Virus record (IMG/VR): IMGVR_UViG_2627853765_000006
Location: 1 to 9,135 of that record
Reading direction: 5' to 3' (one strand)
From: a virus
Lineage: Duplodnaviria; Heunggongvirae; Uroviricota; Caudoviricetes
DNA: 9,135 nucleotides
Shown here in pieces: positions 1-9,135 of this stretch (position 1 is the stretch's first letter; each line of letters opens with the position of its first letter). A program made the translations under genes and the position numbers. The notes under the pieces were generated by a model. It ran no database searches. It was not told the origin of the DNA and worked only from the letters and a program-made list of their open reading frames with translations.

Positions 1-1254
1 ATGCTGGAACAAATGGGCATTGCCGCGAAGCAAGCCTCGTATAAATTAGCGCAACTCTCCAGCCGCGAAAAAAATCGCGTGCTGGAAAAAATCGCCGATG
101 AACTGGAAGCACAAAGCGAAATCATCCTCAACGCTAACGCCCAGGATGTTGCTGACGCGCGAGCCAATGGCCTTAGCGAAGCGATGCTTGACCGTCTGGC
201 ACTGACGCCCGCACGGCTGAAAGGCATTGCCGACGATGTACGTCAGGTGTGCAACCTCGCCGATCCGGTGGGGCAGGTAATCGATGGCGGCGTACTGGAC
301 AGCGGCCTGCGTCTTGAGCGTCGTCGCGTACCGCTGGGGGTTATTGGCGTGATTTATGAAGCGCGCCCGAACGTGACGGTTGATGTCGCTTCGCTGTGCC
401 TGAAAACCGGTAATGCGGTGATCCTGCGCGGTGGCAAAGAAACGTGTCGCACTAACGCTGCAACGGTGGCGGTGATTCAGGACGCCCTGAAATCCTGCGG
501 CTTACCGGCGGGTGCCGTGCAGGCGATTGATAATCCTGACCGTGCGCTGGTCAGTGAAATGCTGCGTATGGATAAATACATCGACATGCTGATCCCGCGT
601 GGTGGCGCTGGTTTGCATAAACTGTGCCGTGAACAGTCGACAATCCCGGTGATCACAGGTGGTATAGGCGTATGCCATATTTACGTTGATGAAAGTGTAG
701 AGATCGCTGAAGCATTAAAAGTGATCGTCAACGCGAAAACTCAGCGTCCGAGCACATGTAATACGGTTGAAACGTTGCTGGTGAATAAAAACATCGCCGA
801 TAGCTTCCTGCCCGCATTAAGCAAACAAATGGCGGAAAGCGGCGTGACATTACACGCAGATGCAGCTGCACTGGCGCAGTTGCAGGCAGGCCCTGCGAAG
901 GTGGTTGCTGTTAAAGCCGAAGAGTATGACGATGAGTTTCTGTCATTAGATTTGAACGTCAAAATCGTCAGCGATCTTGACGATGCCATCGCCCATATTC
1001 GTGAACACGGCACACAACACTCCGATGCGATCCTGACCTGCGATATGCGCAACGCCCAGCGTTTTGTTAACGAAGTGGATTCGTCCGCTGTTTACGTTAA
1101 CGCCTCTACGCGTTTTACTGACGGCGGCCAGTTTGGTCTGGGTGCGGAAGTGGCGGTAAGCACACAAAAACTCCACGCGCGTGGCCCAATGGGGCTGGAA
1201 GCACTGACCACTTACAAGTGGATCGGCATTGGTGATTACACCATTCGTGCGTAA
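1..1254 (+). CDS. proA: gamma-glutamyl phosphate reductase (glutamate-5-semialdehyde dehydrogenase)
   Basis: 417-aa ORF ending at TAA 1252-1254; translation ([43 protein letters not shown]...) matches enterobacterial ProA as I recall it, and the gene lies immediately upstream of thrW as in E. coli. Confidence 0.95.
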
Positions 1255-1368
1255 ATAAAACCGGGTGATGCAAAAGTAGCCATTTGATTCACAAGGCCAT
1301 TGACGCATCGCCCGGTTAGTTTTAACCTTGTCCACCGTGATTCACGTTCGTGAACATGTCCTTTCAGG

Positions 1369-1444
1369 GCCGATATAGCTCAGTTGGTAGAGCAGCGCAT
1401 TCGTAATGCGAAGGTCGTAGGTTCGACTCCTATTATCGGCACCA
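1369..1444 (+). tRNA. thrW: tRNA-Thr (anticodon CGT)
   Basis: 76-nt sequence GCCGATATAGCTCAGTTGGTAGAGCAGCGCATTCGTAATGCGAAGGTCGTAGGTTCGACTCCTATTATCGGCACCA with cloverleaf-compatible arms, anticodon CGT at 1402-1404 and 3' CCA. Confidence 0.92.
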
Positions 1445-1458
1445 TTTAAATCAATAAG

Positions 1459-1930
1459 TTACACATCATTAGTACGTTCCTTATTTCTTGACTGGGACAA
1501 ATTTGGGACCGATGGGTTCAGAATCGAGTCTATTTGCCGTGCGTGTTCGGTAAGGTGATTAGGTGCGAGGTGAGCATATCGACGAACCATTTCGATAGAC
1601 TCCCAGCCTCCCATTTCCTGTAACACTGATAACGGGACTCCGGCCTGAACCAGCCAACTTGCCCAGGTGTGTCTCAAGTCGTGAAATCTGAAATCATCAA
1701 TACCTGCTCGTCTCAGCGCCGCTTTCCAGGCTGTGTTTGCGTCATACCGCATCTTCCTGACTGTTGGCGCTTTCGTTCCGTCTGGTTTGGTACAGCTTTC
1801 CTTATACACAAATACCCAACGGTGATGATTCCCGATTTGTTTTTTCAATACGCGACATGCAGTATCATTCAGCGCAACGCCAATTGCGCGGTTTGATTTA
1901 CTCTCTTCCGGGTTTATCCATGCCACCCGG
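1459..1930 (-). pseudogene. phage tyrosine integrase, C-terminal catalytic fragment (5' end removed at the IS600 boundary)
   Basis: Minus-strand ORF with tyrosine-recombinase motifs ([39 protein letters not shown]: HxxR box and catalytic Tyr). The ORF-track start codon at 1960-1962 lies inside the IS, so the N-terminal domain is missing. 3' end is 14 bp from thrW, as expected for a tRNA-integrated element. Confidence 0.8.
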
Positions 1931-1973
1931 TGAGGTGTACTGGCAATAGCGGACACTACCATTTGTTCTTTTT

Positions 1974-2792
1974 TTAAGCAGCCATCTGATGATATTTTTC
2001 CCTGAAGGCTGCCGGGGAGATATTCCCCAGACGAGAGTGACGACGCTGACGATTGTAGAAAATCTCAATGTATTCCCGTATTACTGAGATGGCTTCATCC
2101 CGGTTATTAAAACGATAGTGGCTCAGGCTCTCATTTTTCAGCGTTCCCCAGAAGCTTTCCATCGGAGCGTTGTCGTAACAGTGACCTTTACGCGACATTG
2201 ATGTTTTCAGACCAGACTGCTCCTGTATGACCCGGTAATCGTATGCGCAGTACTGTGAACCTCGATCAGAGTGGTGGATTAGCCCGGCAGGTGGGCGCTG
2301 GCTCCTGAGCGCCATAAACAGGGCTTTACCTGTCAGCTCTTTTGTCATGCGCTCTCCCATGGCGTAGCCGACAATTTCGCACGTATAAACATCTTTGATG
2401 CCAGCGAGGTACAACCATCCCTCCTGTGTGGCAACATACGTCAGGTCCGCCACCCAGACCTGATTTGGTGCTGTAGGAGCGAACGTCTGGTTCAGCAGAT
2501 TTGGCGCAACTGGCAGATTGTGGTTCGGGTTCGTAGTCGCTCTGAACTTGCGTTTCTGCTTACAGCGTAGCCTTAGCTCCTTACGAAGACGTGCCAGTCG
2601 GTCACGACCAACGATGATGCCATTCTCTGCCAGCTCCGTCTGGAGCCGCCGGGTTCCATATGTTTCGCGAGTGCGGATATGTGCCACCTTAATCTCCAGT
2701 TTTAGCCGCTCATCACTTTGTTTTCTGTCTGAGGGTTCATGCTGTACCCAGTTGTAATAACCGCTCCTGGATACACCAAATACCTGACACAT
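1974..2792 (-). CDS. IS3-family transposase OrfB (IS600-like), DDE domain; probably expressed as an OrfAB fusion by -1 frameshift
   Basis: 272-aa ORF with integrase-core motifs (…HSDRGSQY…, …[17 protein letters not shown]…) typical of IS3-family OrfB; lies downstream of orfA inside the IS. Confidence 0.85.
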
Positions 2793-2827
2793 CGCTTCAA
2801 TGGGAAATTGTTGTCGCCATTGTTCGA

Positions 2828-3130
2828 TTAACGCGTATTTTTCAGCGACTCCTGTGCAAAATACGCTGTTGCTTTTTTTAATATATCTCGCTCAAGGCGA
2901 GCTTCATTTAACGCCTTACGCAGTTGCAGAATTTCAGATTCCAGTTCAGCCACCGTGCGGGAACCAGGAGTACCGAGCCCTTTTCTGGCGGCGGTAACCC
3001 ATTGTCCTAAAGTGCCTTCAGGAAGGGATAATCGGGAAGCGCCTTCACTGATCGAAAGTTGATTTTCAAGAACCGTTCTGACAGCTTCGGCTTTGAACTC
3101 TTTAGAGTAACGTTGGTTTTTTCTGCTCAT
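2828..3130 (-). CDS. IS3-family transposase OrfA (IS600-like), HTH and leucine-zipper
   Basis: 100-aa ORF MSRKNQRYSKEFKAEAVRTVLENQLSISEGASRLSLPEGTLGQWV… matching IS600 OrfA as I recall it; positioned at the IRL-proximal end of the IS. Confidence 0.85.
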   Translation of the reverse strand: MSRKNQRYSKEFKAEAVRTVLENQLSISEGASRLSLPEGTLGQWVTAARKGLGTPGSRTVAELESEILQLRKALNEARLERDILKKATAYFAQESLKNTR

Positions 3131-3194
3131 TATTAGCTCCTTCTGATGCCATTCTATTTCAGGAAGGAGTGTCCGTTAAACTCAGGCTACCTCA

Positions 3195-3434
3195 GCGGTT
3201 ACCCTGGCGACGCGCCTTACGCGTTAACCAGCCTTCTGCTTCCAGCCGTGCGATAGCCGTTCTGACGGTACTCATCCCCGCGCCAATCTGACGGGCAATG
3301 GTTTCAATTGATGGCCAGCACACACCTTCGTCATTACTGAAATCAGCCAGGCGGGCCATAATTGCCACGCTGGATAACTTCATGCCTGATGCAGCGCAAC
3401 CATCCCATACATAGCCGGTTAATTTAGTGCTCAT
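3195..3434 (-). pseudogene. lambdoid replication-initiation protein (O-like), N-terminal winged-helix fragment, truncated by IS600
   Basis: 80 codons (MSTKLTGYVWDGCAASGMKLSSVAIMARLADFSNDEGVCWPSIETIARQIGAGMSTVRTAIARLEAEGWL…) with the C-W-P-S…IA…G-S-RTV…AI..LE..GWL pattern of HTH_36-type N-domains of phage replication initiators. The frame runs into the IS600 end, which supplies the stop (3192-3194). Confidence 0.6.
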
Positions 3435-3443
3435 GACCGACCT

Positions 3444-3782
3444 CTATTTCCCTGAATTTACGACGAAACTGTTCGAGCGGACTGAAGCATTCATGCTCAT
3501 AACCTCCGCGGAGGTAGATAACCCGCTGTGTTTCCGGCTCCCAACGAATGACTCTGACGGGCACTCCGTAGTGATCTTTGAACCAGCGGTTAACTTGTCG
3601 CAAAGGACTGTCTCCTTCTGCCGGTTGAAATCACCCACAGCCCACTCTGCAAAGCTGTGGGTTACAATTTCCCTGTCACCTGGTACATTCACTGCATAGC
3701 AATATTTCACCTTCGCTTTTCCACCCGGTACAGAAAGCGCAATCAGTTGCGAGCGACGGTAGTGTGTTGTTAAACTGTTCAT
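3444..3782 (-). CDS. hypothetical prophage protein, probably frameshifted (protein-like continuation in the -1 frame to 3424)
   Basis: 112-aa ORF whose ATG (3780-3782) overlaps the stop of the upstream CII-like gene (ATGA). Its C-terminal half is Ser-rich and low-complexity, whereas the -1 frame over 3424..3630 reads …[64 protein letters not shown]. Confidence 0.4.
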
Positions 3783-4348
3783 GCGTTAGTTTCTCCACAA
3801 CCAGAAGCAATCGACGCCACGACGCCCGGAGCTGCACACTCGCGGGCGTCATTACTTTCTGAAATGCAAAAAATTTTGTAGACAAGTGCTGCATGCTCCT
3901 GCAGCTTCGAAATTGAGAGATACAGCTCGTCGTTAATTGCTGTCTTCTCATGCGGTTCCACTACACCGTCTTCGATTGCTGAACGAATCTGTTTTGAATA
4001 ACTGCCGATCTGTTCAATGACTTCCAGCAGACGCTGGTTAATATCGGCGTTGTCCACATCCTCGATGTCAGGAAGAGACACAAAGACGCCATTTGCAGAC
4101 TGCGCCACAGCATCAGCAATGAAGTGAGTGCCACCAGCACGCTGTAAAACCATTGCCCATCCCAGCGGGAAAATCTGATCGCCATCTGCACGAAGGCGGT
4201 TGAATAAAGCGTTTTCTGTTACATCGAGCCAGTCAGCCGCTTCAGCGTAACCACCCGGCAACTTTGCGATAGTTTTTCTGACAGCTTTCACGTACCACTC
4301 AGGCTGTTTTTCTATTTTCCAGTGATGCTTACCCACGATTAGCCTCAT
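3779..4348 (-). CDS. phage regulatory protein, CII-like (YdaT-type) downstream of cro
   Basis: 189-aa ORF directly downstream of the Cro-like gene on the same strand, with an N-terminal HTH-like segment ([27 protein letters not shown]). Position and size fit the YdaS/YdaT (Cro/CII-analogue) pair of Rac-type prophages; family assignment is from memory. Confidence 0.55.
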
Positions 4349-4379
4349 CGTTCTGTGGTTAAAAATTGAAAGTGTTCTG

Positions 4380-4580
4380 CTAATCTTTCGGATAGATATC
4401 CGGTCTTAAGTCAGATTTCGTAATTGCACCTGACGTGCATTGCTCAAGTTTTTTAGCCAGCACAAAACTGGCTTTTTTATAGCCATTGAAAACCAGCCGT
4501 AAGTAGCCTTGTGTTGAGCCAACTTTTCCGGCCAACTCACCCTGCTGTTCTTTGGTTAAAGAGTCCCAATACGCTTTCAT
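4380..4580 (-). CDS. Cro-like HTH regulator (YdaS-like)
   Basis: Preferred start is the ATG at 4578-4580, preceded by GGAGG about 10 nt upstream; the longer ORF-track version (to 4883) runs antisense through cI. The 66-aa product MKAYWDSLTKEQQGELAGKVGSTQGYLRLVFNGYKKASFVLAKKLEQCTSGAITKSDLRPDIYPKD has an HTH and the C-terminal RPD(I/V) motif of YdaS-type Cro proteins; divergent from cI. Confidence 0.65.
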   Translation of the reverse strand: MKAYWDSLTKEQQGELAGKVGSTQGYLRLVFNGYKKASFVLAKKLEQCTSGAITKSDLRPDIYPKD

Positions 4581-4583
4581 ACA

Positions 4584-4656
4584 ATATGTACCTCCAGCGT
4601 ACATATTACATGATTGAAATGAACCTTCACGATACTTGTACCTTAGCGGTACAAGG
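4584..4656. promoter_or_regulatory. OR-like operator/promoter region: two 23-bp palindromic operators (9-5-9) between divergent cI and cro
   Basis: O1 4584-4606 ATATGTACC-tccag-CGTACATAT and O2 4634-4656 ACTTGTACC-ttagc-GGTACAAGG; half-site consensus A(T/C)(A/T)TGTACC; centres 50 bp apart. O1 overlaps a minus-strand TAATAT -10 upstream of cro; O2 overlaps a TTGTAC -35-like element, with TTTAAT (4658-4663) just before the cI ATG, suggesting a leaderless cI transcript. Confidence 0.5.
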
Positions 4657-4670
4657 GTTTTAATTTCGTT

Positions 4671-5345
4671 ATGAAAACAATCCATGACATCCGGCGGTCT
4701 AACGCCAGAAAACTGAGAGATGGTGTTGGCGGGAATTCTTCCTTTGCCACTATGATTGATCGCGAGCCAACCCAGACCAGCAGGTTTATGGGAGATGGTG
4801 CTACTAAAAATATCGGTGACAGCATGGCACGACACATTGAAAAATGTTTCGACCTGCCTATCGGATGGCTCGATCAAGAACACCAGACAACGAACATCAC
4901 AAAAAAACCTGATGTTTCAATCACTAACAAACAAATAACGTTAGTCCCTGTCATATCATGGGTACAGGCCGGAGCATGGAAAGAAGTTGGCTATTCTGAG
5001 GTTGATTTGAGCACAGCAGAAACTTATCCCTGCCCTGTACCCTGTGGCGAAATGACTTATATCTTGCGGGTGATTGGTGATTCAATGATTGATGAGTACC
5101 GTCCGGGAGACATGATTTTTGTTGATCCTGAAGTCCCTGCTTGCCACGGTGACGACGTTATTGCGTTGATGCACGATACAGGCGAAACCACCTTCAAGCG
5201 ATTGATAGAAGATGGAACACAGCGTTATCTCAAAGCATTACACCCAAACTGGCCTGAGCCCTACATTAAGATTAACGGTAATTGCTCTATAATTGGCACT
5301 GTGATTTTCTCGGGAAAACCAAGAAGATACAAAATAAAGGCCTAA
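4671..5345 (+). CDS. CI-like phage repressor with C-terminal S24 (LexA-type) autopeptidase domain
   Basis: 224-aa ORF with an N-terminal HTH-like region (…IGDSMARHIEKCFDLPIGWLD) and a C-terminal S24 domain carrying the Ser (GDSM) and Lys (TFKRL) dyad; divergent from the cro-like gene across the operators. Confidence 0.85.
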   Translation: MKTIHDIRRSNARKLRDGVGGNSSFATMIDREPTQTSRFMGDGATKNIGDSMARHIEKCFDLPIGWLDQEHQTTNITKKPDVSITNKQITLVPVISWVQAGAWKEVGYSEVDLSTAETYPCPVPCGEMTYILRVIGDSMIDEYRPGDMIFVDPEVPACHGDDVIALMHDTGETTFKRLIEDGTQRYLKALHPNWPEPYIKINGNCSIIGTVIFSGKPRRYKIKA

Positions 5346-5357
5346 TCAATATTTATG

Positions 5358-5380
5358 AACCTGCTTCGGCAGGTTTTTTT
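5358..5380 (+). terminator. intrinsic (rho-independent) terminator downstream of cI
   Basis: AACCTGC-TTCG-GCAGGTT hairpin (7-bp stem, UUCG tetraloop) followed by a run of 7 T, 13 bp after the cI stop. Confidence 0.75.
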
Positions 5381-5381
5381 A

Positions 5382-5418
5382 TACATTGACAATGTACCCC
5401 ATGGACACACAATGTACC
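5382..5418 (+). promoter_or_regulatory. putative PL/OL-like region: operator-like repeats overlapping a -35 TTGACA
   Basis: Palindrome TACATTGACAATGTA (5382-5396) and two direct copies of ACAATGTACC (5389-5398, 5409-5418, 20 bp apart) sharing the TGTACC core of the OR half-sites; TTGACA at 5386-5391 with a weak -10 CACAAT (5408-5413) after a 16-bp spacer. Confidence 0.3.
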
Positions 5419-5518
5419 AAAACGAAACAACAAACAGGCAGGATGCCCACGAAGTAGCCGCCTGGGGCATATGAAGTCCAAGATGATTCGTTAGCAACAA
5501 AACGCCCATAGGACGCTT

Positions 5519-5531
5519 CGCTCTTTAACAA
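5519..5531 (+). promoter_or_regulatory. boxA-like antitermination motif (rrn/nut type)
   Basis: CGCTCTTTAACAA on the + strand about 100 nt downstream of the putative PL; matches the boxA consensus (rrn TGCTCTTTAACAA; lambda nut CGCTCTTA). Flanked by the inverted repeat GACGCT (5512-5517) / AGCGTC (5545-5550). Confidence 0.45.
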
Positions 5532-5835
5532 TTTGAATATTTTCAGCGTCAATGATCTGTTTAGCTCCCTACAAGTAAATGTAGCGTAGCACCATGATAA
5601 ATCCTGCTAGTGTTTAGTTAAAAATCGCGCGAGAGCAAGAACGATGTGAGGGCAGGCAATACTGATAGTGTTATTGCTATTAGTTTATCAAAAATATTTA
5701 GACGACCCAGATGAATATTTTTAATACATACTCCCCCTAATTTAACAGGAGTAAATGTTGATGAATAACGAGACATCTATACTCAACAATTGTATGATAT
5801 GAACAATTATATAACATAATGTAGGAAAAATAAAA

Positions 5836-5970
5836 ATGGATTGGCATGACCTTATATCAAAGGTAATTATCGGACTTGTTACAGGCTCAATCGCAGCTTA
5901 CTTAACTGCGCGATATGCACTCGGCCGTTATTATAAAGAAAAATGGTGGGACAAAAGAATAGATTTGTAG
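5836..5970 (+). CDS. small predicted membrane protein (44 aa), possibly truncated by IS1
   Basis: ATG at 5836 preceded by AGGA about 9 nt upstream; MDWHDLISKVIIGLVTGSIAAYLTARYALGRYYKEKWWDKRIDL has one hydrophobic helix followed by a basic/aromatic tail. The stop TAG (5968-5970) uses the first G of the IS1 terminus, so the native C-terminus is unknown. Confidence 0.3.
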   Translation: MDWHDLISKVIIGLVTGSIAAYLTARYALGRYYKEKWWDKRIDL

Positions 5971-6024
5971 GTGATGCTGCCAACTTACTGATTTAGTGTA
6001 TGATGGTGTTTTTGAGGTGCTCCA

Positions 6025-6300
6025 GTGGCTTCTGTTTCTATCAGCTGTCCCTCCTGTTCAGCTACTGACGGGGTGGTGCGTAACGGCAAAAGCACTGCCG
6101 GACATCAGCGCTATCTCTGCTCTCACTGCCGTAAAACATGGCAACTGCAGTTCACTTACACCGCTTCTCAACCCGGTACGCACCAGAAAATTATTGATAT
6201 GGCCATGAATGGCGTTGGATGCCGGGCAACTGCACGCATTATGGGCGTTAGCCTCAACACGATTTTACGTCACTTAAAAAACTCAGGCCGCAGTCGGTAA
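6025..6300 (+). CDS. insA: IS1 InsA (transposition inhibitor/DNA-binding protein)
   Basis: 91-aa ORF (GTG start) [43 protein letters not shown]… matching IS1 InsA. Confidence 0.9.
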
Positions 6301-6344
6301 CCTCGCGCATACAGCCGGGCAGTGACGTCATCGTCTGCGCGGAA

Positions 6345-6722
6345 ATGGACGAACAGTGGGGATACGTCGGGGCTAAATCGCGCCAGCGCTGGCTGTTTTA
6401 CGCGTATGACAGGCTCCGGAAGACGGTTGTTGCGCACGTATTCGGTGAACGCACTATGGCGACGCTGGGGCGTCTTATGAGCTTGCTGTCACCCTTTGAC
6501 GTGGTGATATGGATGACGGATGGCTGGCCACTGTATGAATCCCGCCTGAAGGGAAAGCTGCACGTAATCAGCAAGCGATATACGCAGCGAATTGAGCGGC
6601 ATAACCTGAATCTGAGGCAGCACCTGGCACGGCTGGGACGGAAGTCGCTGTCGTTCTCAAAATCGGTGGAGCTGCATGACAAAGTCATCGGGCATTATCT
6701 GAACATAAAACACTATCAATAA
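6345..6722 (+). CDS. insB: IS1 InsB (transposase domain; normally made as InsAB' by -1 frameshift from insA)
   Basis: ORF …[110 protein letters not shown] matching IS1 InsB. The ORF-track start is the first in-frame ATG; the true frame opens upstream within the 3' end of insA. Confidence 0.8.
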
Positions 6723-6737
6723 GTTGGAGTCATTACC

Positions 6738-7074
6738 CAGACGGCGTACCACACAGGAAAAGATCGCAATTGTTCAGCAGAGCTTTGAACCGGGGATGAC
6801 GGTCTCCCTCGTTGCCCGGCAACATGGTGTAGCAGCCAGCCAGTTATTTCTCTGGCGTAAGCAATACCAGGAAGGAAGTCTTACTGCTGTGGCCGCCGGA
6901 GAACAGGTTGTTCCTGCCTCTGAACTTGCTGCCGCCATGAAGCAGATTAAAGAACTCCAGCGCCTGCTCGGCAAGAAAACGATGGAAAATGAACTCCTCA
7001 AAGAAGCCGTTGAATATGGACGGGCAAAAAAGTGGATAGCGCACGCGCCCTTATTGCCCGGGGATGGGGAGTAA
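6738..7074 (+). pseudogene. insC: IS2 InsC (OrfA), N-terminally truncated at the IS1 junction
   Basis: …[111 protein letters not shown] matches IS2 InsC from about residue 10; the apparent TTG start at 6724 and first residues MESLP come from the IS1 terminus. Confidence 0.8.
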
Positions 7075-7937
7075 GCTTAGTCAGCCGTTGTCTCCGGGTG
7101 TCGCGTGCGCAGTTGCACGTCATTCTCAGACGAACCGATGACTGGATGGATGGCCGCCGCAGTCGTCACACTGATGATACGGATGTGCTTCTCCGTATAC
7201 ACCATGTTATCGGAGAGCTGCCCACGTATGGTTATCGTCGGGTATGGGCGCTGCTTCGCAGACAGGCAGAACTTGATGGTATGCCTGCGATCAATGCCAA
7301 ACGTGTTTACCGGATCATGCGCCAGAATGCGCTGTTGCTTGAGCGAAAACCTGCTGTACCGCCATCGAAACGGGCACATACAGGCAGAGTGGCCGTGAAA
7401 GAAAGCAATCAGCGATGGTGCTCTGACGGGTTCGAGTTCTGCTGTGATAACGGAGAGAGACTGCGTGTCACGTTCGCGCTGGACTGCTGTGATCGTGAGG
7501 CACTGCACTGGGCGGTGACTACCGGCGGCTTCAACAGTGAAACAGTACAGGACGTCATGCTGGGAGCGGTGGAACGCCGCTTCGGCAACGATCTTCCGTC
7601 GTCTCCAGTGGAGTGGCTGACGGATAATGGTTCATGCTACCGGGCTAATGAAACACGCCAGTTCGCCCGGATGTTGGGACTTGAACCGAAGAACACGGCG
7701 GTGCGGAGTCCGGAGAGTAACGGAATAGCAGAGAGCTTCGTGAAAACGATAAAGCGTGACTACATCAGTATCATGCCCAAACCAGACGGGTTAACGGCAG
7801 CAAAGAACCTTGCAGAGGCGTTCGAGCATTATAACGAATGGCATCCGCATAGTGCGCTGGGTTATCGCTCGCCACGGGAATATCTGCGGCAGCGGGCTTG
7901 TAATGGGTTAAGTGATAACAGATGTCTGGAAATATAG
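7032..7937 (+). CDS. insD: IS2 InsD (OrfB, DDE transposase domain; normally expressed as InsCD by -1 frameshift)
   Basis: 301-aa [52 protein letters not shown]… matching IS2 InsD; overlaps the 3' end of insC in the -1 frame. Confidence 0.85.
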
Positions 7938-7948
7938 GGGCAAATCCA

Positions 7949-8230
7949 GGAGCGTTCTGGCTCGTTTTGCTGATCATCGCAGGTTGGGGCGGTCTGGTCC
8001 GCTACCTGATAGATGTGAAGCAGAGTAAAGCAACGTGGAGTTGGATAAATGCTCTGGCTCAGATAGTGGTATCAGGATTCACCGGTGTTATTGGTGGCCT
8101 GATCAGCATCGAAAGTGGATTCAGTATTTACATGATTCTCGCGACAGCGGGGATTAGTGGTGCGATGGGTTCGGTTGCACTGACGTACTTCTGGGAACGA
8201 CTGACAGGGGTGAAAAATGCAAAATCTTAA
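7949..8230 (+). pseudogene. phage holin, 5'-truncated at the IS2 right end
   Basis: 93 codons with three hydrophobic segments (AFWLVLLIIAGWGGLV / WSWINALAQIVVSGFTGVIGGLI / FSIYMILATAGISGAMGSVALTYF) and a charged C-terminus; overlaps the start of the lambda R-like endolysin. The first 9 codons of the ORF-track entry (MSGNIGANP) are IS2 sequence. Confidence 0.5.
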
Positions 8231-8473
8231 TCCTCAGCGTAAAGCTTTCCTCGATATGGTGGCATGGTCAGAAGGAACGGATAACGGGCGACAACCGACA
8301 CGTAACCACGGTTATGATATTATTGTCGGTGGTGAACTCTTCACTGATTACTCCGATCACCCTCGCAAACTTGTCACGCTAAACCCCAAACTCAAATCAA
8401 CAGCTGCAGGCCGTTATCAACTTCTTTCACGCTGGTGGGATGCTTACCGCAAGCAGCTTGGGCTGAAAGACTT
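8217..8473 (+). pseudogene. lambda R-like endolysin (lytic transglycosylase), 3'-truncated by the IS911-like element after codon 86
   Basis: MQNLNPQRKAFLDMVAWSEGTDNGRQPTRNHGYDIIVGGELFTDYSDHPRKLVTLNPKLKSTAAGRYQLLSRWWDAYRKQLGLKDF is near-identical to the N-terminal half of lambda R as I recall it; similarity stops at the IS terminus TGAAGTGG (8474). Confidence 0.8.

Positions 8474-9135
<662 letters not shown>

Follow-up and report, generated by a model that had tools for sequence, protein, structure and literature searches.

A boxA at the edge of a putative fossil nutL module of the phi80 type in a prophage early-left leader

Introduction

How is early transcription made resistant to termination in lambdoid phages that have no N gene? 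In lambda nutL, a boxA in the leader of the cI-repressed early-left operon uses NusB/S10. Many lambdoid phages carry no N gene, and we know of no established mechanism for their early antitermination. The question is raised by a stretch of 9,135 nucleotides (nt) of a tailed-phage record (IMG/VR IMGVR_UViG_2627853765_000006, positions 1 to 9,135), here called the window, in which a sequence-only reading had picked out a boxA of the ribosomal (rrn) type downstream of the cI gene with no recognisable N gene beyond it, suggesting either that N was lost to an IS1 insertion or that the leader is N-independent. A 2025 survey only guesses at a 'put-like' mechanism for one N-less phage (PMC12315714).

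Here we argue, with a little more confidence than doubt, that this boxA is a sequence for loading Nus factors that belongs to a phi80-type nutL module, within the cI-repressed PL leader of an SfV/e14-type prophage, that the site is now a fossil, and that antitermination in most carriers of the module is apparently N-free. The data themselves show the sequence with its homology and conservation, the structure of the RNA family, the lack of N and of a second, nutR-type site, and the decay; Nus-factor binding, antitermination and independence from N are what we infer by analogy. Two covariation-supported leader RNAs, a boxA-headed domain and an upstream three-way junction, are delimited at the right place for the question of N-less antitermination. 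Both are absent from Rfam, which gave no match to the junction RNA, and none over the module in the window or in its intact phi80 and PA2 copies.

Results and discussion

An rrn-type boxA in a cI-controlled leader

The features that place the boxA are as follows.
4671-5345, + strand: gene for a cI-type repressor (LexA family, YmfK/CohE-like) of 224 amino acids (aa), from the list of open reading frames (ORFs)
5357-5376, + strand: intrinsic terminator of cI, from a terminator scan; SfV carries a terminator annotation there
5386-5413, + strand: PL-type sigma-70 promoter TTGACA-16-CACAAT, from a promoter scan, directly after the cI terminator
5389-5398 and 5409-5418, + strand: two operator half-sites ACAATGTACC, overlapping the PL-type promoter
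5503-5515, + strand: short imperfect hairpin CGCCC-AUA-GGACG just 5' of boxA, read from the sequence; with boxA it makes up the SfV-type 'hairpin + boxA' linker module
5519-5531, + strand: boxA CGCTCTTTAACAA, an exact match at the 5' edge of the phi80-type nut module, predicted to be single-stranded

The relatives' promoter reads TTGACA-16-CATAAT, and the ACAATGTACC motif recurs between cro and cI, there as palindromes TGTACC-N5-GTACA. Since the promoter follows the cI terminator and its half-sites are common to the cro-cI region, an early-left transcript under cI control would run along the + strand here, with the boxA region as its leader and boxA itself roughly at +100. The sequence-only reading had placed the motif about 100 nt past a TTGACA/operator-like cluster following the cI terminator, at the nutL position of a PL-type transcript; the promoter and half-sites bear this out, and the site is homologous to one annotated as nutL in phi80. 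The PL operator region (5389-5428) is itself a 20-bp direct repeat (ACAATGTACCCCATGGACAC / ACAATGTACCAAAACGAAAC), of which a relative with an identical cI (L006) has one additional copy.

The window sequence GCTCTTTAACA fits the Nus-factor boxA consensus GYTCTTTAANA (Baniulyte et al., PMC5725501), and 15 consecutive bases, GCTCTTTAACAATTT, are identical between the boxA region and the E. coli rrnH leader. The motif is the sole match in the window, even at one mismatch, with a shuffle expectation of 0.04 (any match in 8 of 200 shuffles), so the exact match claimed earlier is confirmed and chance is an unlikely source of it. Past cro the window has no boxA; one further near-match, ACTCTTTAACC with two mismatches (4564-4554, - strand, the rightward one), lies inside the cro-like ORF, about 30 nt past its start, and is probably due to chance.

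The rrn leaders (boxB-boxA-boxC, served by NusB/E/A/G, SuhB and S4) resemble the window in this 15-nt identity and in that no dedicated phage protein is evident at the window boxA; for the rrn hairpin just upstream of boxA the window has a weak candidate (5503-5515). They differ in context, which in the window is a phage PL leader, and in that the window has no clear boxC, the downstream UCUGUUUAG being only loosely like the rrn boxC UCUGUGUGGG. In relatives the upstream hairpin reads GCGCCC-UAYA-GGACGC, with one variant GCGUC/GACGC.

A 6-bp inverted repeat described earlier as enclosing boxA is indeed present (GACGCT, 5512-5517; AGCGTC, 5545-5550), but relatives with other upstream sequence lack it. 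Its arms fall in two separate sequence modules and boxA is unpaired in the consensus fold of the nut module, so we rejected the repeat as a conserved stem. As had been noticed, no lambda-style boxB adjoins boxA, the nearest hairpin lying 38 nt downstream at 5569-5584. A single-sequence fold of 5420-5600 was not stabler than shuffles (z = -1.0), and the structural claims made below, for the nut domain and the three-way junction alike, are all based on covariation.

The boxA opens a phi80-type nutL module

Downstream of boxA the leader continues as a recognisable module.
5518-5682, + strand: degenerate phi80-type nutL module (boxA, 13-nt spacer, structured domain), an nhmmer match of about 165 nt
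5544-5564, + strand: conserved block CAGCGTCAATGATCTGTTTAG, invariant in the alignment with phi80-type copies
5569-5584, + strand: hairpin CUACA-AGUAAA-UGUAG, where phi80 has its 'nutL core' (boxB analogue), register shifted
5626-5664, + strand: conserved block CGCGCGAGAGCAAGAACGATGTGAGGGCAGGCAATACTG of the nut domain, found in two alignments

Positions 5520-5664 align with phi80 nutL at 70% identity over 145 nt (blastn, E = 2e-8), and the window has the arrangement that marks the module, boxA at 5519-5531 followed by the block CAGCGUCAAUGAYCUGUUWAG (5544-5564) in a PL leader. The GenBank records of phi80 label the site 'nutL regulatory signal' (M11919) or 'nutL boxA' and 'nutL core' (JX871397), annotated only as putative, with the phi80 N gene 350 nt downstream. 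The two sites share conserved blocks, a position past a cI-controlled PL and a boxA that opens the module; where phi80 has its 'core', the window has a hairpin in a shifted register. They differ in that the window boxA has the rrn consensus and that of phi80 is GCTTTTTAACA, and in that the window has no phi80 N downstream, its domain is decayed and the 3' strand of the closing helix is lost.

Early-left leaders with the same module occur in PA2/P13374/TL-2011c-type Stx2a phages, in HK225 and in Klebsiella phage KO-TP1, with intact copies at 2501-2668 in PA2 (L210), 2499-2665 in L212 and 1999-2166 in L213; a scan of viral contigs for one conserved module block returned 126 copies, 92 of them unique. 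Its homology starts exactly at boxA beneath at least seven unrelated upstream contexts. In 20 representatives the family structure consists of a single-stranded boxA, a spacer and a multi-helix domain of about 137 nt closed by CAGCGUCA/UGGCGCUG. Within the domain 97% of cells pair, against 31-42% when partners were slid, and nine pairs are changed on both sides, against 0-2. In intact copies the first 7-8 nt of the block 5544-5564 form the 5' strand of the domain-closing helix, with UUGGCGCUG as partner, and the relatives' core hairpin is CACG-UAAA-CGUG, with one compensatory variant (CACA/UGUG). Both RNA families were gathered with exact 21-23-nt seeds, within which conservation is uninformative; the sequences sampled are also related to one another.

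The phi80 'nutL' is thus a module of about 165 nt, boxA plus a covarying multi-helix domain, and it is about 95% conserved across phi80, the O104:H4-type Stx2a phages, HK225 and a Klebsiella phage, whose downstream genes are unrelated. Many relatives (e.g. L275, L327, L221) have, some 175-200 nt past boxA and after the nut domain, a strong Shine-Dalgarno sequence and a mini-ORF of 2-3 codons (AGAGGAGUGAUUCCA AUG AAG CAC UAA; variants AUGAAGCAGUAA and AUGAAGUAGUAA), an arrangement that suggests a translated leader peptide or a ribosome-loading site. In PA2 (L210) the long, nominally non-coding + strand leader between the nut module and a Rha/Ant-like gene holds an isrK RNA (2867-2942, 58.7 bits) and a C4 antisense RNA (2967-3054, 77.1 bits), an arrangement like P1 immI within the PL operon of an Stx2a phage.

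Decay of the window copy

The window copy retains boxA, the block 5544-5564, a hairpin at the core position and the block 5626-5664. Of 39 consensus pairs it can form 28, against 36-39 in 19 other representatives. Three of the seven pairs of the closing helix are broken, its 3' strand being replaced past about 5675 by AT-rich sequence that runs into a 198-aa ORF, so that the window lacks the intact, closed domain of about 137 nt. Compared with the core consensus CACG-(U/A)AAA-CGUG, the window hairpin is at the same place with its register shifted and two of four consensus pairs broken. The domain differs from the nearest intact subtype at 31 of 102 positions, 22 of them GC-to-AT changes, and the boxA-proximal part at 6 of 52. 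The operon beyond is also gone, as the following features indicate.
5836-5970, + strand: first 44 codons of the AT-rich 198-aa ORF (phrog_17948, function unassigned), cut by IS1
5970-6737, + strand: the insertion sequence (IS) IS1, 768 bp, ends read from the sequence

From boxA to IS1 there are 438 nt (5532-5969). IS1 directly adjoins a 5'-truncated IS2-like element (orfA), the remainder of the PL operon being deleted. With its domain decayed and its operon truncated by IS1 and a deletion, the window site appears to be a fossil, and as a dead remnant it would have no direct consequence in the window itself.

Is an N protein needed?

The sequence-only reading had described the DNA before IS1 as holding only tiny ORFs and a small membrane-protein ORF. 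That no Arg-rich N lies there is upheld, among the tiny + strand ORFs in 5532-5969 as well, but the small ORF is the start of the 198-aa ORF, intact in E. coli ECONIH4, where HD hydrolase and excision/integration genes follow. The suggestion that N was lost to IS1 finds no support, since 16 E. coli genomes cover at least 80% of 5346-5970 with no IS1 interruption and ECONIH4, the one opened, has no N.

The best placed of the rival explanations, though an unlikely one, is that the site was a classical N-dependent nutL, requiring a phi80-type N or an unrecognised analogue on the core hairpin, and that the AT-rich 198-aa moron took the place of N ahead of the IS1 insertion, leaving the site to decay. 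The phi80 N gene does lie 350 nt downstream of a homologous site annotated as nutL with boxA and core, the AT-rich ORF of the window starts where phi80 has N, and the window domain is decayed while boxA survives. Against this, IS1 itself did not remove N, and a phi80-N homolog lies within 1.2 kb downstream in only 8 of the 106 module copies with enough flank, a lambda-N homolog at no module locus. Searches by tblastn with phi80 N and lambda N found no match in the window, ECONIH4, the complete genomes of SfIV and PhiR29_1, or PA2. The first ORFs after near-identical modules are hypervariable; none is Arg-rich or a recognised antiterminator, and PHROGs returned no antiterminator among the downstream ORFs of module loci. 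PA2-type phages are functional yet have no N annotated, and the sole antiterminator in the annotation of the Stx2a phage PA2 is of the Q type. Nor is there a nutR, since the domain is single-copy and confined to the left operon in both PA2 and phi80, and the whole SfIV genome has one boxA. All eight N-bearing copies have a non-consensus boxA; they are essentially one lineage, so this coincidence is not independent evidence. No co-inherited trans-acting factor common to all loci was found within 5 kb on either side, the commonest protein cluster occurring at 30 of 50.

Proposed mechanism

The steps proposed here for the Nus-factor loading boxA follow what has been established for the nut sites of lambda and for rrn leaders. 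The transcript of intact relatives would open with the three-way-junction RNA, continue with single-stranded boxA and in some lineages run on into the multi-helix domain of about 137 nt. During elongation the boxA would recruit NusB-S10 to RNA polymerase, together with NusA and NusG and probably also SuhB, making PL transcription resistant to Rho-dependent termination over the long untranslated or moron-containing stretch before the recombination/excision genes, and a lambda-type N would apparently not be required in most carriers. In the window, IS1 and the associated deletion have removed the operon 438 nt downstream of boxA, leaving the site as a probable fossil.

Lambda nutL/nutR has in common with this arrangement a boxA in the leader of a cI-repressed early-left operon, and the use of NusB/S10 would be expected by analogy. 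The differences are several: the window lacks a 5-bp boxB hairpin with a GNRA-like pentaloop within about 10 nt, its hairpin at 5569-5584 having a 5-bp stem and a 6-nt loop, AGUAAA; it lacks an Arg-rich N and a nutR; its boxA is the full rrn consensus where lambda has CGCTCTTA; and in its intact relatives a domain of about 137 nt follows boxA. The boxA-headed domain is common to phi80 and the O104:H4-type Stx2a phages. Since the module precedes the early-left (recombination) operon in Stx2a phages, it may influence prophage induction and, indirectly, toxin production.

A three-way-junction RNA at the start of the leader

Upstream of boxA the same leader carries a second structured RNA.
5429-5492, + strand: three-way-junction RNA of about 64 nt, starting a few nt past the transcription start

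It consists of a closing helix P1, a hairpin GGC-AGGAY-GCC (GGC-AGGAU-GCC in the window), an invariant junction CACGAAGUAGCC, a 5-bp hairpin B with a 12-nt loop and a junction AUGA. The covariance model R1 matches the window at 5419-5502 with 87 bits, with one mismatched pair in P1 (A.C) and one in hairpin B (C.A). Across the family pairing is seen in 95% of cells, compared with 23-44% when partners are slid, and at 10 of the 14 pairs both sides vary. The closing helix occurs as AGCGAA/UUCGCU, CCACC/GGUGG and GUCAUC/GAUGAC, the second hairpin in at least nine stem versions. The unpaired nucleotides are invariant in the sampled copies, 23 of them being fixed by the search pattern. Two GGA motifs lie about 40 nt apart. 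A full-text search of the open-access literature for the RNA sequences gave no match, and either leader RNA may have been described elsewhere.

The RNA lies within a few nt of the transcript start below dozens of unrelated early promoter/operator regions. It is present in 51 phage records (including ST64B, SfII, ZF40, YeP1-3, mEp237, SPN3UB and the terminal repeats of T5-like Providencia phages) and at 82 loci from about 60 species, mostly Enterobacterales. The covariance model finds one copy each in SfIV and PhiR29_1 and none in phi80, in HK022 or in the early region of PA2. Further examples lie on the - strand at 28382-28465 of L207 and 6103-6187 of L209. The core in the lytic T5-like Providencia phages (KY363465.1, 5191-5230, H218; MW057857.1, 55457-55496, H220) indicates that the RNA extends beyond temperate phages; vB_PreS_PR1 has two matches to it, of which the one listed falls within an annotated repeat region. 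A further conserved stretch (…GUUAACGCGCAGCAGGUGAUAAACGUUCCGCUGGCCGGCGAUAAGGCAAAC…) stands before or after the junction RNA in L350, L351, L384 and L340, so that some leader RNAs may be tandem or composite.

With N generally absent, a nutR lacking and two conserved structured RNAs in the leaders, a mechanism that is based on RNA and independent of N is conceivable, and the N-independent or RNA-based leader proposed by the sequence-only reading is compatible with the sequence but unproven. Taken further, a cis-acting RNA alone (the three-way junction, the boxA-headed domain or both) together with host Nus factors might confer termination resistance in the N-less phages (SfV/SfIV/ST64B/e14 and the PA2/O104:H4-type Stx2a phages), as a second widespread RNA-based class beside HK022 put, a generalisation that we offer tentatively and would not expect to hold.

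A rival reading, which we think rather improbable, makes the three-way-junction RNA at 5429-5492 the active element, acting in cis on RNA polymerase like HK022 put, with boxA as an optional accessory. It would account for the position of the RNA under so many unrelated promoters, for its very strong covariation and the invariance of its unpaired nucleotides (with the 23 fixed by the search pattern), and for its presence in all SfV/e14-type leaders with or without boxA, in phages that have no N. The likeness to HK022 putL extends to a structured RNA (here about 64-70 nt) a few nt past the PL start, again in phages with no N, but the two differ in architecture, a three-way junction against two stem-loops with a triplex, and in sequence, the HK022 PL-nun region (putL) having no blastn similarity to the window leader. 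HK022 has putL and putR, whereas SfIV and PhiR29_1 have one junction RNA per genome and none in the right operon. Downstream intrinsic terminators are not enriched, and the RNA could equally well be a CsrA-type protein site (it has two GGA motifs), stabilise the mRNA or be processed into a small RNA.

Conservation and dispensability of boxA

The sequence-only reading had proposed aligning this leader with those of related phages, and when this is done boxA proves to be kept in many. In SfV-type relatives the promoter and the first 75 nt or so of the leader are common to all, after which the leaders fall into classes. One, with the 'hairpin + boxA' linker, includes SfIV and PhiR29 and shows at least seven unrelated sequences after boxA plus 6 nt; it probably also takes in the majority of the 1361 E. 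coli records whose match is confined to the first 195 nt, and the one record opened does belong to it. In the window-type class boxA runs on into the phi80-type domain. Overall the 11-nt consensus survives intact below at least 12 different upstream contexts and above at least seven downstream ones, SfV-type leader boxA varying mainly at the single free consensus position (GCTCTTTAAAA), with one broken copy (GCTCTTTAGCA) among 163.

Several observations weigh against a Nus-factor loading role for boxA in N-free antitermination. The phi80 site is annotated as N-dependent, and Nus binding and read-through are predictions for every member of the module family. The commonest module subtype, that of phi80, has GCTTTTTAACA, altered at C4, which is described as a critical position for the binding of Nus factors, so that boxA is less constrained than the downstream blocks, and SfV-type and e14-type leaders have the same promoter and three-way junction but run straight into an ORF with boxA absent, so that boxA is dispensable for this phage type. 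Together these weaken the case for boxA as the critical part. Leaders with and without boxA overlap in their distance to the first ORF, so that boxA does not go with a longer or shorter untranslated stretch, and we dropped the idea that boxA is kept where the downstream stretch is untranslated. Nor did we find support for a need to read through downstream intrinsic terminators: 31 of 162 loci have one on the + strand, fewer than the 45 of 162 with one on the opposite (-) strand.

That SfV and e14 manage without boxA, that mosaic junctions immediately flank it on both sides and that the window prophage is defective would also suit a functionless hitch-hiker, a shared patch at which lambdoid genomes recombine, kept in N-less phages by descent and recombination and not by selection. 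We regard this as distinctly improbable: the consensus stays intact over all those upstream and downstream contexts, with the single broken copy, and divergence in the window lineage is far lower in boxA and the 50 nt next to it than in the remaining module.

Least probable, in our estimate, is a suhB-type boxA, at which a Nus complex would repress translation of the next ORF, provoke premature Rho termination and so limit PL-operon expression: such repression was shown for suhB and a ParE-like toxin gene (Baniulyte et al., PMC5725501), the window boxA likewise being a perfect match in a non-rRNA 5' leader, and SfIV-type relatives have the suhB-type spacing of boxA some 50 nt before a start (a 68-aa ORF with a strong Shine-Dalgarno sequence begins about 45 nt past boxA), with an ORF start 60-150 nt past the three-way junction in 19 of 32 boxA-bearing leaders, but the published sites lie within 50 nt of the start codon whereas the next start codon (5836) is 305 nt from boxA in the window and in ECONIH4, with a structured domain between, the next ORF of PA2 is about 600 nt away, and the PL-leader position and nut-site homology favour antitermination.

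The prophage remnant

The window appears to hold an SfV/e14-type prophage remnant at thrW, riddled with insertion sequences and defective. Across the immunity region, identity to phages SfV, SfIV and PhiR29 and to the E. coli e14 element is 95-98%, and cI is 95-100% identical to the cI of SfV, SfIV and PhiR29 and to e14 ymfK. A 417-aa ORF entering from the left window edge is presumably proA. The remaining features are listed below.
1369-1441: tRNA-Thr gene, from an Rfam scan of the window
1459-1962, - strand: truncated integrase gene, adjoining tRNA-Thr
1974-3130: IS3-family element
on the - strand: ymfM-like, CII-like (ymfL) and cro-like (ymfT) genes
7922-8230: orphan LydA-type holin gene, with a further IS after it

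Synteny with ECONIH4 stops at 5969, with none past IS1, and transposase domains are detected downstream of that element. Searched for exactly, the IS1 junction gave no match among the species-representative genomes. The IS-shredded layout at 1369-3130 and 5970-9135 resembles the pattern seen in Shigella.

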